Shown: positions 5,227-62,070, counted from the first letter of the stretch. The stretch: DNA of 64,000 nucleotides from Kiritimatiellia bacterium (GCA_040768005.1 JAXGNL010000009.1:1471-65470), one strand, 5' to 3'. A program made the numbers and translations. The notes: a model not told the origin generated them from the sequence alone.

Positions 5227-8200
5227 TCAGGCCTTGGCCAGGGCGATGGCGCAGGGGTGGCCGTTGATGTCGAGATCGCCGGGGCCGGGGACGGCGGCAA
5301 GTTCGACGGCGAGGGTCTCGGCGGCGATGGTGTCCCGGTGGGCTTCGATGGCGGAGAGCAGTTCGGCGTCGGCGGCGATCTTCAGGGTGATGCGGTCGGC
5401 GACGTCGAGGTTCTGGGTCTTGCGCTGGTTCTGGATGCGGTTGATGAGTTCGCGCGCGTGGCCTTCCTGGACGAGGGCGGGGGTCAGGTTGGTTTCGAGG
5501 GCGACGACGAGGGCGCCGCTGGAAGCGACGGCGAGGCCGTGCCGGGGGGTGCGCTGGATCAGGACATCCGCCGGATCGAGTTTGACGGGCTTGCCTTCCA
5601 GCACAATGACGACGGACTGGTTGTCGAGCAGCTCCGCGAGCTCCTCGGTGCCGAAGGAGGCGATGGCGGCGACGGCTTTTTTCATGAGGCCGCCGAGCCG
5701 GGGGCCGAGGGTCTTGAAGTTGGCCTTGGCGGAGAGCTCGGCGAGGGCGGTTTCATCGCGGCCGAAGCGGACTTCCTTGACGTTGAGTTCGTCGGCGACG
5801 ATGTCGGCGAGGGGGCGGACGAGGTCGAGGACGGCGTCGTCGCGGCAGACGACATGGAGGGCGGCGAGGGGCTGGCGGACCTTGAGGTTGAAGTCGGCGC
5901 GGAGCTGGCGGGCGAGGCCGACGACTTCCTGGACGCGGGCCATCTGGGCTTCGAGGGCTTCGTCGCGCGGCAGGGTTCCGGGGAGGGGATAGTCGCAGAG
6001 GTGGACGGATTCGGGCATGTCGTCCGTCCGCAGGTTGCGGTGGATCTCCTCGGAGAGGAAGGGGGTGAAGGGCGCGGCGATCCGGCACAGGCGCAGCAGA
6101 ACGGTGTGAAGGGTTTCGTAGGCGCGGGTCTTGTCGGCGTCGTCCTCGCTCTTCCAGAAGCGCCGGCGGGAGCGGCGGATGTACCAGTTGGTGAGGTCGT
6201 CAATGAACTGCACGAGGGGCCGGACGGCCTGCTGGAGGTCGTAGGCGTCCAGGGCGGCGACGACATCGCCGGCAAGCCGGTCGAGGGTGGAGAGGATCCA
6301 GCGGTCCATGAGGGAGGGGGAGGGGGGAGTTGGAATGGTGGAATGATGGAATGATGCAGGGGCCGATCCGTTCGGATCTGCGCCTTCTGTCCTCTGGCCT
6401 TTGGCGTCGCCGCATGGCGGCTCCCAGCCGTCCACGTTGGCGTAGGTGACGAGGAAGGAGTAGGCATTCCACCAGGGGATGAGGAGGTGGCGCAGGGAGT
6501 GGACGACGCCCTGTTCCGAGAAGCAGAGATCCTCGGCGCGGACGATGGGCGAATGGATCATGTAGAGGCGCAGGGCGTCGGCGCCGTAGGTGTCGAAGAT
6601 GTAGTTGGGGTCGGGGTAGTTCTTGAGGCGCTTGGACATTTTGCGTCCGTCTTCGGCGAGGACGAGGCCGTTGACGATGACGTTCTTGTAGGGGGATTTT
6701 CCGAACAGGGCGGTGCCGAGGAGCATCAGGGTATAGAACCAGCCGCGGGTCTGGTCGAGGCCTTCGGCGATGAAATCGGCGGGGAAGAATTTGTCCAGTT
6801 CACCGGCCCGTTCGAAGGGGTAGTGCTGCTGGGCGTAGGGCATGGAGCCGGATTCGAACCAGCAGTCGAGCACTTCGGGGGTGCGGCGGTAGGTCTTGCC
6901 GTTGAGCGTGAAGGTGATCTTGTCCACGTGGTGCTTGTGGAGGTCGGCGACCTTCCGGCCGGAAAGCTGTTCGAGTTCGGCGATGGAGCCGACGCAGACC
7001 ATGTCCTGGCCGTCCTCGGAGACCCAGACGGGGATGCAGGAGCCCCAGAAGCGGTTGCGGGAGATGTTCCAGTCCTTGGCTTCCTTGAGCCAGTTGCCGA
7101 AGCGCTTTTCGCCGACGGCCTGGGGGACCCAATGGACGGGGGCGTTGCTTTCGGCGAGGCGGTCGCGGAGATCTTCGACGCGGACATACCAGGCCTCGAT
7201 GGCGCGGTAGATCAGCGGGGTGTCGGTGCGCGGGCAGAAGGGATAGGAGTGGACCAGGGTGGACTGGTGCACCAGCTTGCCGGCGTCTTTCAGCGAACGG
7301 ATGATGGGTTTGTCGGCGTCCTTGCAGAAGACGCCGTGGAATTCGGGGACGGATTCGGTGAAGGCGCAGACATCGTCGAGATAGTCGCGCAGGGGGATGC
7401 CGGCGGCCTGACAGACGCGGAAGTCGTCCTCGCCGAAGGCGGGGGCGATGTGCACGAACCCGGTGCCGTCCTCGGTGCTGACGAAGCCGTCATTGAGGAT
7501 GCGGAACGCGCCGGGGGCGTCGTCCTTGAAGGTATCGAAGATCGGCTCGTAGGTGAGTCCGAGCAGGTCGGCGCCCGTGAAGGCGGCGAGGGTTTCGTAC
7601 TGGTCGGGTTTCTGGTAATAGGCGGCGAGCCGGGCTTCGGCGAGGAGATAGATGCTGCGGTCGGCGGCGTCGCGGACGGCGACATAGGGGATATCGGGTC
7701 CGGCGCAGATGGCGAGGTTGCCGTAGAGGGTCCAGGGGGTGGTGGTCCAGATGAGGGCATAGACGGGGGAGCCGCCGGCCTCGAGGCCGGCGGGCAGAGA
7801 CGTCAGCTTGACGCGGACGGTGATGGAGGGGTCCTGGACGTCCTGGTAGTTGCTGCCGGCCTCGAAGTTGGAGAGGGGGGTGTTGAGCTTCCAGGAATAG
7901 GGCATGATGCGGTGGGACTTGTACACGCGGCCCTGCTCCCAGAGCTGCTTGAACACCCACCAGATGGTCTCCATGAAGGAGGGGTCCATCGTTTTGTAAT
8001 CGTTGTCGAAGTCCACCCAGCGGCCCATGCGGGTGACGGTTTTGCGCCATTCCTCGACGTAGGTGAGCACCATGGAGCGGCAGGTTTCGTTGAAGACATC
8101 CACGCCCCGGGCGGCGATGTCGGCGGCGCCGGAGAGCCCGAGCTTCTCCTGGGCGAGGGCCTCGATGGGCAGGCCGTGGCAGTCCCAGCCGAAACGCCGT

Positions 8201-8439
8201 TCGACCAGGTGTCCGCGCATGGTCTGGTAGCGCGGCAGGATGTCCTTGATGGTGCCGGCGAGGAGATGGCCGTAGTGGGGGGCGCCGGTGGCGAAAGGAG
8301 GGCCGTCGTAGAAGACGTATTCCCTGGCGCCCCGGCGGTGGGCGATGGACTTCTTGAACGTGTCGTGCTCGGCCCAGAAGCGGAGGACGTCCTCCTCCAT
8401 TTCGGGAAACGACATTTTGCTGGAAACGGGCTTGAACAT
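5227..8439 (-). CDS. ileS: isoleucine--tRNA ligase (type 2)
   Basis: Carries PPFATGAPHYGHLL (HIGH) and KMSKRLKN (KMSKS). Start taken at MFKPVSS (ATG 8439), which has GAAGGAAG 7 nt upstream. Confidence 0.95.
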   Translation of the reverse strand: MFKPVSSKMSFPEMEEDVLRFWAEHDTFKKSIAHRRGAREYVFYDGPPFATGAPHYGHLLAGTIKDILPRYQTMRGHLVERRFGWDCHGLPIEALAQEKLGLSGAADIAARGVDVFNETCRSMVLTYVEEWRKTVTRMGRWVDFDNDYKTMDPSFMETIWWVFKQLWEQGRVYKSHRIMPYSWKLNTPLSNFEAGSNYQDVQDPSITVRVKLTSLPAGLEAGGSPVYALIWTTTPWTLYGNLAICAGPDIPYVAVRDAADRSIYLLAEARLAAYYQKPDQYETLAAFTGADLLGLTYEPIFDTFKDDAPGAFRILNDGFVSTEDGTGFVHIAPAFGEDDFRVCQAAGIPLRDYLDDVCAFTESVPEFHGVFCKDADKPIIRSLKDAGKLVHQSTLVHSYPFCPRTDTPLIYRAIEAWYVRVEDLRDRLAESNAPVHWVPQAVGEKRFGNWLKEAKDWNISRNRFWGSCIPVWVSEDGQDMVCVGSIAELEQLSGRKVADLHKHHVDKITFTLNGKTYRRTPEVLDCWFESGSMPYAQQHYPFERAGELDKFFPADFIAEGLDQTRGWFYTLMLLGTALFGKSPYKNVIVNGLVLAEDGRKMSKRLKNYPDPNYIFDTYGADALRLYMIHSPIVRAEDLCFSEQGVVHSLRHLLIPWWNAYSFLVTYANVDGWEPPCGDAKGQRTEGADPNGSAPASFHHSTIPTPPSPSLMDRWILSTLDRLAGDVVAALDAYDLQQAVRPLVQFIDDLTNWYIRRSRRRFWKSEDDADKTRAYETLHTVLLRLCRIAAPFTPFLSEEIHRNLRTDDMPESVHLCDYPLPGTLPRDEALEAQMARVQEVVGLARQLRADFNLKVRQPLAALHVVCRDDAVLDLVRPLADIVADELNVKEVRFGRDETALAELSAKANFKTLGPRLGGLMKKAVAAIASFGTEELAELLDNQSVVIVLEGKPVKLDPADVLIQRTPRHGLAVASSGALVVALETNLTPALVQEGHARELINRIQNQRKTQNLDVADRITLKIAADAELLSAIEAHRDTIAAETLAVELAAVPGPGDLDINGHPCAIALAKA

Positions 8440-8483
8440 GGAAACTTCCTTCTCGGGCCGCACCGGACCCGAATCAGCCGGTC

Positions 8484-22022: not shown

Positions 22023-22438
22023 GATCAGCCCTCCTGCGTTGGCGTTGTCGTCTCTTCTATCCGGACTATATCGCATCCGGCCCGGGCGGACAAGGGCGGC
22101 TTCGGAGGAACAACCGGGGGAACAGCCAGGCAGAAAAACAGGAAACACCGGAACACAGGAGAACGGCCGGGGGAGGAAAAACTACGAAAGGCGCGAATAG
22201 AGGGAGGGAAAGGCAGGGGAGTATTGCAGCAGGAAGACAGGAAACACAGGACAACAGGATGACAGGATGTTTAGGATGGGAAACGGGGGTTCCGCGGACC
22301 CCGGACCCGGAATATATGGAATGATGGAATGGAGGACCCTTTCGCCTGCCCCCCTTCTGTCCCCTGACCCCTGTCCCCTGTTCCACCGACCTCGGACCGC
22401 GGACCGCGGGGCTTGCGGTTGGCGGGTTTCGGGGTAGG

Positions 22439-27132: not shown

Positions 27133-27204
27133 TTTTCCACGGTGTGGAAAACTTTTTTCCATGGCGTGGAAAACCGGCGGAAATTTTTTCCATGGCGTGG
27201 AAAA
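27133..27204. repeat. triple-palindrome element, copy 2
   Basis: Units at 27133-27151, 27155-27173 and 27186-27204, spacing 22/31 bp as in copy 1. Lies between the convergent thiD and AI-2E transporter genes. Confidence 0.85.
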
Positions 27205-40130: not shown

Positions 40131-41533
40131 TCCGAATGCCAAACCGCCTGTCCATTCCGCTGTGTCGCCTGCTGCTGGGCCTGTGCGCGGCCGGGGTGCT
40201 TCCGGCCCGGGCCCAGGCCCCGGCGCTGCGCTCCGGGCGGTCGGGGCGGGCCTCCATGTACAGCGCGGATCGCCGCTTCATGGTGTCCGGGCTCAGCTCC
40301 TCGGAGAACATGGTATTGGCCGGCCGGCTGGCCGACCTGGCCGCCCAGGTGGAGAAAACCACCGGCATGCCCCTGCCGATGGAGCGCGGCCAGGTGCTGG
40401 GCGTCATGGTCCAGAGCTCTTCCTCGCCGGACGCCGGCATCCTGAAGATGCAGGGATGGGACGGCGGGGGCTTCTACCAGCGCCTGGTCGTGCCCGGCCG
40501 CTACCGGCTCGACGGCGAAGACCTGCTGGAAGCGGCCGGCTGGCTGCTGCTGAACCGCTATGCCGCCGGCTACACCCCGTCCGCCGGTCGGAGCGGCATC
40601 GGCGCAACGATACCGGAATGGATGTCGGCCGGGCTCGTGCAGAACACCCAGGCCGCCCTGCACTCCCGCAACCGCGACTGGATCGTCCGGGAACTGGCCG
40701 ACGGCCGCCACATGACCCTGTCCGCCATTGTCCGGCTGGAAAGCCTGCCCCCCGGCCGCTGGCGGGAAAAAGCCTATGCCGCCGCCGCCATGGAATTTCT
40801 CTTTCCGGACGGCGATTTGAATGCCTGGGCCGCTCTTTTCAAGGCCGTCGGCACGCGCCGGGCGATCGATGCCGCCTGGCTGCGGGAACACAGCGCCGCG
40901 CTGGCCGGGCCGCAGCATCCCGAGACCGTCTGGCGCGAGCATCTGGCGGAGCGCGCGCGCGCCCGCACGATCGCGGCCTGGAGCGATCGCGGCCTGCAGC
41001 TGGAGGAAAACCTGCTGCGCACGCTGAACATCCGTCCCCGGACCCTGGTGGCCGGCGTGCCCGACGACGTGCCCGAGGAACTGTTTGCCAAAGACCTGAT
41101 GGACTACCGCGGGCAGGAATGGACCGGCCCCCTGGCCGCCGCGCTGTCGCTTCAGGTGCAGAGCCTGAGGCTGGGCGCGCCGCCCCTGCTGCAGGACGTG
41201 CTCGCTTCCTACGCCGCCTACTTCGATCAGCTGACCCGGCCTCCGGAGGCCAAAACCCCGTGGTGGCGCCGCCGCCGCCGCACTCCCGAAGACCTGCGGC
41301 CGCCCGATGACGCCACCTGGCAGGTGGCCCTCAATCAGCTCTGGCTGCGGGCCGAACACGCCCATCAGCGATTCCTCGAGCGTCACCAGACCCGCAAGCG
41401 CTACGTGGACGCCTTCGACCGGCCCGAACCCGGCCGCCTCGAGGAAACCGTCCCCGCCGCCGATCTGCCCCGCACCCGCTGGCAGCGCTACGTCGATGAG
41501 GTCGAGCAACGGCTGAACCAAGCGGGGTACTGA
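40127..41533 (+). CDS. secreted hypothetical protein
   Basis: 468 aa. Signal peptide [17 protein letters not shown]. No recognisable family. Confidence 0.55.
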
Positions 41534-47844: not shown

Positions 47845-49644
47845 GTACGCCCAGCATGGGCGTGAAGCGTATGGGGTTGAAGTCCCCTGTACATGGAATC
47901 AACCTACCGAAAGGAAGGGAAAAGTACGAGCCAAAAGCAAGGGCGGTCGGGTAACCGGCGGTCTGGAGGAAGCTGGCGGCGAAGTCACGGGCCGATGAAC
48001 AAGAATTGCATAGCAGGCCGAGTGGGCCGGGTGAGTGGGCACAAGACCACGAAACCCGCTGGTTCAGCCCATACGGTAAATGCGGCGGCCGCGGGACGGA
48101 CGTTCACGCTCTTATCTGGGGAGATCCCGTCCCGACCTCTCAAGAGTCGGGACCGGGAAGTCAGCCGAGGGCATAGTAGCCCAACGCCGGAGGCAATGCT
48201 CCGGACATGGTGAAGGCCCGAACATCGGAACCGGGGAGGACGCCCGTCGCTCCCGCCGCCTTGATGAACCCGAATGGGGGAGAGCGCGGCGGCAACACGG
48301 CGGCCCCGTCTGCCCCGCAACCCACCGACCTGCTCGAACGGGTCCTGGATCGCGGCAACCTCAACCGGGCCTGGCGCCGGGTCAAAGCCAACGGCGGCGC
48401 ACCCGGCATCGACGGCATGACCGTCGAAGCCTTCCCGGAATGGGCGCGCGTGAACTGGGCTCCGATCCGGCAGGCGATCCTGACGGGAACCTACCGCCCT
48501 TCGCCGGTGCGGCGGGTGGAGATTCCCAAGGCCTCTGGAGGCAAACGCCCGCTGGGCATCCCGACCGTCACGGACCGGGTGATCCAGCAGGGCATTCTCC
48601 AGGTGCTCGGCCCGATGTGGGACCCCGGATTCTCGGAGTCCAGCTTCGGGTTCCGTCCCGGACGCAACGCCCACGGAGCTGTCAAGCAGGTCCAGGGGCT
48701 GATCCGCACCGGCCGCCGCTGGGCGGTCGATATCGACCTGCGGAAGTTCTTCGACACCGTGGACCACCGGATCGTCATGAGCCGGTTGGCCCGCAAGATC
48801 GAAGGCCAGCCGCTGTTGAGGCTGATCGGCCGCTACCTGCGGGCGGGCGTCATGATCGACGGACACATCGAACCCACGCGGGAGGGCGTGCCCCAGGGCG
48901 GGCCGCTCTCGCCCCTGCTGGCCAACATCGTTCTGGACGACCTCGACCGGATGCTGGATCAACGCGGTCATGCGTTCGCGCGGTACGCGGACGACTTCGT
49001 GATCCTGGTCCGGAGCGAACGGGCGGCCCAACGCGTGATGGCCGGCGTCTGCACCTTTCTGGAACGCAGGCTCAAGCTCCGCATCCATACCGGCAAAAGC
49101 CGCATCGTGCGCGGTTCGCAACTCGATTACCTCGGGTTCTGCTTCGCACGCGGCCGCATCCGGCTCACCCACGAGGCCCTGCTGAACTTCAAGCGGGAAC
49201 TCCGGTGGTGGACCGGGCGGCACTGGTTGAAGTCGATGGACGTGCGCCTTGCCAAGCTGCGGTCCTACGTGCAGGGGTGGATGAACTACTACGGGCTCTC
49301 CGGCGTCTACCGCGACTGGCCGGGTCTGGACGACTGGCTGCGGCGGCGGATTCGGATGTGCTACTGGGTGATGTGGAAACGTCCCCGGCCCCGCATCCGC
49401 AACCTGCGCGCCCTCGGCGTCCCGATCCGCCAGGCGGTCGGCCTCGGCCGCAGCAGTCTCGGATCGTGGAAGTGCGCCCGACTGCTTGGGTTCGCGATGT
49501 CAAAGAGCTGGCTGGAAAAGCAGGGTCTCATCTGCCTCGCAGACGACTGGTGAGCGGCGCTGGTACTGGGTCCGGCGAACGCCGGTGAATCTGCAACGCG
49601 TACGGTGGCAGGGAGGAGCTAATCACTCCCTTACCCACCTCGAT
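47845..49644 (+). mobile_element. group II intron, class C attC-targeting type (1800 nt)
   Basis: Starts GTACG directly after an attC stem-loop ending in TTGT. Ends ...CCTCGAT before TCGCA. Encodes an RT/maturase without an endonuclease domain. Orientation is antisense to the cassettes. Confidence 0.8.
48207..49553 (+). CDS. group II intron reverse transcriptase/maturase
   Basis: RVEIPKASGGKRPLGIPTVTDRVIQQ, FGFRPGRNAHGAV, DIDLRKFFDTVDH, GVPQGGPLSPLLANIVL, ARYADDFVILV, maturase RSYVQGWMNYYG. No HNH/En domain. The start could instead be ATG 48264. Confidence 0.9.
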   Translation: MVKARTSEPGRTPVAPAALMNPNGGERGGNTAAPSAPQPTDLLERVLDRGNLNRAWRRVKANGGAPGIDGMTVEAFPEWARVNWAPIRQAILTGTYRPSPVRRVEIPKASGGKRPLGIPTVTDRVIQQGILQVLGPMWDPGFSESSFGFRPGRNAHGAVKQVQGLIRTGRRWAVDIDLRKFFDTVDHRIVMSRLARKIEGQPLLRLIGRYLRAGVMIDGHIEPTREGVPQGGPLSPLLANIVLDDLDRMLDQRGHAFARYADDFVILVRSERAAQRVMAGVCTFLERRLKLRIHTGKSRIVRGSQLDYLGFCFARGRIRLTHEALLNFKRELRWWTGRHWLKSMDVRLAKLRSYVQGWMNYYGLSGVYRDWPGLDDWLRRRIRMCYWVMWKRPRPRIRNLRALGVPIRQAVGLGRSSLGSWKCARLLGFAMSKSWLEKQGLICLADDW

Positions 49645-60984: not shown

Positions 60985-61096
60985 GGGAGGCAGGGGACAG
61001 AGGGCAGGGGACAGAGGACAGAGGGCAGAGGACAGAGGACAGAGGGCAGAGGACAGAGGACAGAGGGCAGGGGACAGAGGACAGAGGACAGAGGGG
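60985..61096. repeat. GGACAGAG-type tandem repeat block
   Basis: About 13 consecutive 8-mers GGACAGAG/GGGCAGAG/GGGCAGGG on the plus strand, between convergent gene ends. Confidence 0.9.
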
Positions 61097-61842: not shown

Positions 61843-61876
61843 AGCAGAGGACAGAGGACAGAGGACAGAGGGCAGC
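61843..61876. repeat. GGACAGAG-type tandem repeat block (short)
   Basis: GCAGAGGACAGAGGACAGAGGACAGAGGGCAG, same strand polarity as 60985-61096. Followed by a CCGAGGTCCGAAGTCCGAGG and CCACC/CCAAC low-complexity tract. Confidence 0.85.
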
Positions 61877-62070
61877 CCGAGGACGAAGGACTGATGACGG
61901 AAGACGGAGGACCGAGGTCCGAAGTCCGAGGTTGGAAGTCCGCCCACCCACCATCAACCACCGACCACCAACAACCAACTGAGAACAGAAGAACGGATCC
62001 CGACCTCTTGCCGAGTCGGGACGGATTTCGCGGATGGGGACCATTGGATCGAATCCGTGCAGTTCAGGGT

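Follow-up and report, generated by a model that had tools for sequence, protein, structure and literature searches.

Cyanobacteria reportedly carry repeats known as STRR, said to go back to work by Mazel and colleagues in 1990, and long simple-sequence repeats with units of 5–11 nt, heptamers predominating, are likewise said to have been reported by Mrazek, Guo and Shah in 2007. Elements of another kind, the Rickettsia palindromic elements (RPEs) attributed to Ogata and colleagues in 2000, are said to be 100–150 bp long, to follow a conserved consensus and to form a hairpin; reportedly, they are found in frame in housekeeping genes, aminoacyl-tRNA synthetases included, where they are tolerated as surface loops. 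Published repeat families also include the GGGNATC repeats in Xanthomonas and Nostoc (Rehm et al., 2015; PMC4692102) and the four-tandem-heptanucleotide elements (GGGACCG) at 49 intergenic and intragenic sites of Geobacter metallireducens, which conform to a single consensus and for which a role as regulatory RNAs was proposed (PMC2700814). Tandem repeats of Borg elements create intrinsically disordered protein segments (PMC9879509).

The locus compared with these systems here is the gene ileS of an uncultured Kiritimatiellia bacterium. It is located in a DNA stretch of 64,000 nt (the window, C9:1471-65470; a window coordinate is the C9 coordinate minus 1470) of a genome of 2.58 Mb in 93 contigs with 66% GC (G000). 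The gene product contains the Pfam domains tRNA-synt_1 (residues 26–645), Anticodon_1 (720–867) and DUF5915 (887–1077), and has, according to Pfam, the class Ia core, the anticodon-binding domain and the type-2 C-terminal domain of a type-2 IleRS; its best relatives in PDB are cytoplasmic and type-2 IleRS (IleRS2; E-value of 4e-302). The catalytic core is joined to the anticodon-binding domain by a linker, and the translated repeat stretch lies, as the original prediction had placed it, between YANVDGW and DRWILS. The prediction also held that this linker is about 20 residues longer than in other enzymes of the type, which is borne out: the most frequent length at 104 related loci is 14 aa, and that in ileS is 39 aa (25 residues more).

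On the gene strand, the linker starts with gagccgccatgcggcgac, followed by a heptamer arm (arm A), a spacer, an octamer arm (arm B) and a C-rich run, which leads via TCATG into GAC CGC TGG (Table 1). Arm A can be read as CAGAGGA-type heptamers in about two to four copies, and TRF applied to the linker reports AGGACAG x2.1 within it; it also contains the 10-mer discussed below. A local 5-bp hairpin is present at the spacer in the predicted fold. Arm B, which harbors the 15-mer discussed below, is of the CATTCCAY type with 94% matches, its copies being CATCATTC CATCATTC CACCATTC CA, and the C-rich run codes for part of TPPSPS in the product. With its octamer, heptamer and C-rich arrays, the insert consists of head-to-tail units of 5–11 nt in approximately three or more copies, as do repeats of the STRR type. 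Read on the opposite strand, the octamer array includes TGA, which would fix its orientation in ileS.

Table 1. Positions of ileS, its linker and insert parts, and of related arrays and genes. Positions without a contig name are window coordinates.
Feature	Position	Strand	Details
ileS, type-2 (eukaryote-like) isoleucyl-tRNA synthetase	5227–8463	-	1078 aa, single ORF
ileS linker, residues 681–719	6307–6423	-	39 aa; helix 650–678 before, helix 718–739 after
C-rich hexamer/heptamer run	6312–6330	-	ACTCCCCCCTCCCCCTCCC; TRF CTCCCCC x2.7
Arm B, octamer array	6331–6356	-	gene strand CATCATTC x3.2, + strand TGGAATGA; TRF score 45
15-mer TGGAATGATGGAATG, one-mismatch copy	6331–6345		
15-mer TGGAATGATGGAATG, exact	6339–6353; 22317–22331		within arm B; in usp-gpx spacer
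Spacer	6357–6377	-	ATCCGAACGGATCGGCCCCTG, 21 nt; from sequence
Mini-palindrome	6365–6378	+	GATCCGAACGGATC, 14 nt; overlaps spacer, last base inside arm A
Arm A, decayed heptamer array	6378–6405	-	GCCAAAG GCCAGAG GACAGAA GGCGCAG; GAGGACA/CAGAGGN family
10-mer CCTTCTGTCC, exact	6383–6392 (+ strand); 22353–22362		within arm A; in usp-gpx spacer
Array-rich part of divergent usp-gpx spacer	22230–22409	.	genome TRF
usp-gpx array	22230–22267	.	CAGGAAGA x4.6; TRF
usp-gpx array	22316–22331	.	ATGGAATG x2; TRF
usp-gpx array	22357–22381	.	CTGTCCC x3.6; TRF
usp-gpx array	22388–22409	.	GACCGCG x3.1; TRF
Intergenic-type array, arm A unit family	60987–61094	.	GAGGACA x15.6; TRF score 160–181
In-frame array, DegT-type aminotransferase gene	C2:26549-26636		in single Pfam domain
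In-frame array, RseP-type protease gene	C5:45716-45815		in M50 domain
In-frame array, FAD-linked oxidase gene	C28:16093-16152		between both domains
In-frame arrays, two ABC-type permease genes	C20:26984-27011; C20:41366-41395		
PF05635 genes	C62:631-939; C2:56587-56904; C2:21587-21904; C11:8197-8502; C33:10348-10659; C39:18912-19211		

The original prediction rested on a 15-mer and a 10-mer of ileS which recur in a second spacer of the window. Both matches are exact, and this divergent spacer indeed has a gene of the Usp family on one side and one for glutathione peroxidase (GSHPx) on the other, as had been proposed. The 15-mer TGGAATGATGGAATG occurs three times in the whole genome, and 100 shuffles yielded no match. 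In contrast, the 10-mer CCTTCTGTCC was counted five times vs. approximately 5.6 expected from base composition by our own arithmetic and is, therefore, at chance level when taken alone. Exact matches of at least 10 bases to the 80 nt beside the ileS 15-mer occur in 1.5% of random 80-nt windows and in 2.5% of array flanks. The pairing of 15-mer and 10-mer is, therefore, only weakly significant, and the 10-mer was rejected as independent evidence. Of the predicted pair, the 15-mer, found far above chance, is thus a real signal, the 10-mer marginal. Among 25 genomes searched, the 15-mer octamer pattern was detected at three sites in G000, at seven loci in a genome of the same genus (G001) and once each in G003 and G009, while the reversed pattern gave no match in the 25 genomes. 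GGAATGRT octamer arrays are restricted to the genus of the window, the 15-mer to this genus and its close kin. Copies of the 15-mer outside ileS are found at gene boundaries, many of them preceding a start codon by 15–25 nt or forming inverted pairs, and since they sit there, the earlier reading was right in that ileS contains sequence of a dispersed, intergenic family, one composed of tandem short-unit arrays rather than of a discrete element. What the ileS and usp-gpx sites have in common is repeat units; an element whose ends can be defined is not shared. In blastn with the insert, the spacer scored an E-value of 0.25, and a discrete repeat from the usp-gpx spacer, also sought genome-wide by blastn, was not found.

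When periods that are multiples of three are set aside, TRF analysis of the whole genome shows a prominence of periods 7 and 8, with 177 and 90 arrays, respectively, at a score of ≥36; at a score of ≥60, there are 29 arrays of period 7, 16 of period 14 and 56 of period 21. Using a crude GC3/ORF classifier (coding-like: both 150-nt flanks open in one frame, GC3 ≥ 0.75), 16 of the 177 heptamer arrays (9%) and 15 of the 90 octamer arrays (17%) have a coding-like context, compared to 60% of random positions; as far as this classifier goes, the arrays show the excess in non-coding DNA expected of STRR-type repeats. They are also dispersed in large number and derive from limited unit families. Fifty-two unit classes comprise 174 period-7 arrays, 82 of which belong to the top six: CCGAGGT (19 arrays), CCTCTGT (15; equivalent to GAGGACA and including the unit of arm A), CCCCTGT (14), CAGAGGT (12), CAGGGTT (11) and GGTGGTT (11). 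Period-8 arrays number 84 in this count; the octamer family CCTGTTTT has 19 arrays and CCATCATT three, one of these three in ileS. Further blastn matches of the ileS insert (C9:62461-62579) lie in the GAGGACA x15.6 array. Like STRR and long simple-sequence repeats, the arrays have 7–8-nt units, usually in three to five copies, reach hundreds per genome with few unit families, and are in strong excess in non-coding DNA near gene ends. Unlike STRR, their units are not of the G-quadruplex type, their host belongs to the Kiritimatiellia, and the ileS copy lies within an essential gene. They resemble the Geobacter elements as a dispersed family of heptamer arrays between and within genes, but their units vary by site and lineage, without a consensus element.

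Several observations concern the arrangement of such arrays. Long heptamer arrays at window positions 60987–61094 and 61845–61979 consist of GAGGACA x15.6, then CAGAGGA, GAGGACC x12.6 and CCACCAA x5.1; these are the same unit families as in the arms of the ileS insert, here and in relatives. GGAATGRT arrays (L122, L124 and L126 in G001; C43:8130-8300 in G000) usually end 15–25 nt before a start codon and then read CATTCC on the strand of the gene; in an alternative layout, two arrays face each other in inverted orientation across a loop of about 25–40 nt. These arrays may serve as 5′ leaders. Palindromes of 19 bp of the TTTTCCACGGCGTGGAAAA type adjoin octamer or heptamer arrays at fixed spacing (window 27133–27174), with further groups at C5 ~49100-49200, C16 ~40510-40570 and L121 in G001. 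Mini-arrays of the 9-mers AATCCGTAA and TACGGATTG, which flip orientation about every 53 nt over ~850 bp (C2:28097-28944) and are also present in C69, C74 and C81, represent a separate repeat module.

Besides ileS, at least five other genes of the genome carry heptamer arrays in frame, in at least three cases within or between single Pfam domains. In the one C20 permease that was scanned with Pfam, the array is upstream of the BPD_transp_1 domain. Such arrays yield peptides like GDRGQETEVRGQRSE, and the DegT insert holds a GGATCGG core similar to that of the ileS insert. The genome further encodes six PF05635 proteins (23S rRNA intervening-sequence protein, four-helix bundle). Four of the six genes are flanked directly by inverted heptamer arrays, as in one example where AGAGGAC x4.4 is paired with TCCGTCC x19.9 across the gene, and the other two by hexamer arrays.

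In related genomes, the linker was delimited in 104 of 110 ileS loci, plus L117–L120. Between VDGW and DRW, 59 of the 104 loci have 13–14 aa, and the maximum is 44 aa. As ileS forms one uninterrupted frame in every relative with a delimited linker, with inserts of 13–44 aa, a split gene or a spacer read through by chance was rejected; from the intact frame in all relatives, we infer that the insert is translated. An intein or intron was set aside on appearance, the insert being ~25 aa of low complexity without splicing motifs. Nearly all expanded linkers are composed of one or two heptamer arrays with lineage-specific units. Examples are AAGTCCA x3.4 + CCTTCAG x8.7 in L002, GGTCAGA + ACCGACC + CCCCCCT in L003, CAGGAGT x4.1 in L004, CAGGGTT + CCACCAA in L007 and L034, the near-inverted pair ATGGTGA + CCATCCA in L018, and GAAGACG + AATTGCA in L021. 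Self-match at period 7 averages 0.48 for linkers of ≥20 aa, 0.43 for those of 15–19 aa and 0.25 for those of baseline length. In DNA alignments, leader and spacer (CCGAAnGGATC or GGATCGGCC) are common to L001, L003, L004, L007 and L034, and the spacer core GGATCGG recurs in the inserts of relatives. A tree built without the linker unites the long forms of the window's family in one clade (14 rows, support 98) and nests linkers of 15–17 aa as sisters of long forms; one of these shorter forms, L008, is itself an ACCTGCA x4 array. The C-rich run is also present in L012, a short-linker relative branching just outside the insert-bearing clade. With the site and the spacer common to these relatives and the units varying among them, one old insertion with turnover of the arms is indicated. 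The simplest reading of these alignments and the tree would be a single ancestral insertion, followed by arm turnover and partial collapses; independent insertions of elements with a common GGATC core, similar to the core in DegT, may be an alternative.

G001 is an independent assembly from the same genus. With 94% protein identity, it matches G000 in linker length (39 aa) and architecture, and the octamer arm is identical; since the same insert is found there, an assembly artefact was rejected. At the DNA level, the two genomes are 95.1% identical outside the linker and 90.0% at third codon positions; within the linker, the value is 83.8%, with the differences clustering in the spacer and arm A. 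Octamer arm and C-rich run together show one difference in ~52 positions, compared to ~10% at synonymous sites. This is a weak hint (our own Poisson estimate is ~0.03) that this part is subject to constraint or homogenisation rather than to pure drift.

Structural consequences were assessed with AlphaFold2 on an alignment of 28 sequences, from which L037 was omitted due to a stop codon; the model is mediocre overall (mean pLDDT 74). Helix 650–678 (block means 85–93) and helix 718–739 (block mean 95) are predicted with confidence and are separated by a coil (679–717) with pLDDT < 50 at 686–710. The model proposed along with the original prediction thus points to a disordered coil between confident helices, within a structure of middling quality. 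The linker is also precisely where HMMER alignments to the human and yeast IleRS are gapped or split. Coil and gaps coincide and, therefore, the insert is predicted to be a disordered loop at the junction where the anticodon-binding domain follows the catalytic core. The Borg repeats and the ileS insert both combine in-frame tandem nucleotide repeats with disordered segments and fast evolution, and differ in host and element.

Overall, the best explanation, which we consider about 80% probable, is that ileS carries STRR-like arrays in frame which go back to one insertion, were turned over by slippage and are tolerated as a loop without function. An insertion of ~25 aa, made up of heptamer arm, spacer with mini-palindrome, octamer arm and C-rich run, would have occurred once in the ancestor of a clade of ~14 species. 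Subsequently, replication slippage and homogenisation would have shifted unit sequence and copy number of the arms, and several lineages would have partly collapsed the insert back toward baseline length. Selection on the essential ileS would ask only for a length in multiples of three and the absence of stop codons, and the gene would tolerate arrays only in this loop. The peptide would be a floppy surface loop without a function of its own; the insert is probably tolerated junk.

One competitor is a mobile element of the RPE, REP or MITE kind, discrete and palindromic, that entered ileS here and, independently, the same hot spot elsewhere, with the heptamer arms as inverted ends and GGATCGG as core. 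Inverted array pairs are frequent among intergenic copies (e.g., C43:8130-8290, L124), the flanks of most PF05635 genes have this layout, a GGATC-type core lies between the arms in both ileS and DegT, and the arms of L018 are near reverse complements. Nevertheless, a sensitive blastn search of the whole genome (word size 7) found no consensus element for the ileS insert: the best match is 36 nt of low complexity (E-value of 0.002, C43:8252-8287, the right-hand member of two inverted octamer arrays), i.e., similarity beyond the repeat units is not significant. Folding of the insert is no better than that of shuffled sequences (MFE −23.4 vs. mean −26.7 kcal/mol, z = +1.0; 167 of 200 shuffles fold as well), for which reason an RPE-like hairpin was rejected. 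Neither inverted ends in the fold nor a target-site duplication or defined ends in alignments of filled vs. short sites were found at ileS, and the clade-wide homology of the spacer fits descent from one event. We thus regard a mobile element as unlikely. Of the original prediction, which had spoken of a dispersed intergenic unit and had likened it to Rickettsia palindromic elements, the dispersed and overwhelmingly intergenic families are supported, whereas a discrete unit comparable to those elements is not. Common to RPEs and this insert is repeat DNA in frame in a conserved gene, here a single ORF of 1078 aa with an insert absent from most relatives; in contrast to RPEs, a consensus of ~100 bp or more (matches ≤36 nt, E-value ≥0.002) and a stable hairpin are missing.

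Alternatively, a permissive loop could have gained low complexity in situ by slippage, its resemblance to the intergenic families being coincidence. The chance frequency of the 10-mer, the marginally unusual pairing and the blastn value against the usp-gpx spacer would agree with this. The 15-mer would not: its expected number of matches is 0, and its distribution over G000 and G001, set against the empty reversed control, largely refutes coincidence. Moreover, the arm A unit GAGGACA is among the commonest families, and the prevalence of period 7 among intergenic arrays is matched in the linkers of relatives. Coincidence is, in our view, very unlikely. It is very improbable, finally, that the insert is functional, be it as an adaptive loop or as a leader-like signal before an ATG (Met719) for separate expression of the C-terminal half. 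The typical position of CATTCC arrays in G000 and G001 ahead of start codons looks like the layout in ileS, and conservation of the octamer arm from one genome to the other is unusually high. Against this, both halves are in one frame whatever the insert length, in all the loci with a delimited linker, many relatives are without the insert, relatives that lack arrays have Met719 as well, and the loop is predicted to be disordered.

The arrays might also be something other than passive products of slippage. Special machinery, perhaps connected with the PF05635 genes, could write or maintain them, and occupied sites such as the ileS linker would then have been re-templated repeatedly with new units; we hold this to be unlikely. 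If true, such an array-writing mechanism would explain lineage-specific, internally homogeneous units at one site, as well as an octamer arm that is more conserved than synonymous sites.

The case of ileS is real but ordinary; the repeat class is already known from bacteria, and the locus reveals no new mechanism. It does show the reach of an intergenic repeat class into an essential, highly conserved enzyme, and it offers a natural series for the turnover of heptamer arrays, in which one site in ~20 species carries different units around a common spacer. For annotation, it is a warning that low-complexity loops in proteins of Kiritimatiellia are often translated repeat DNA, not functional domains.
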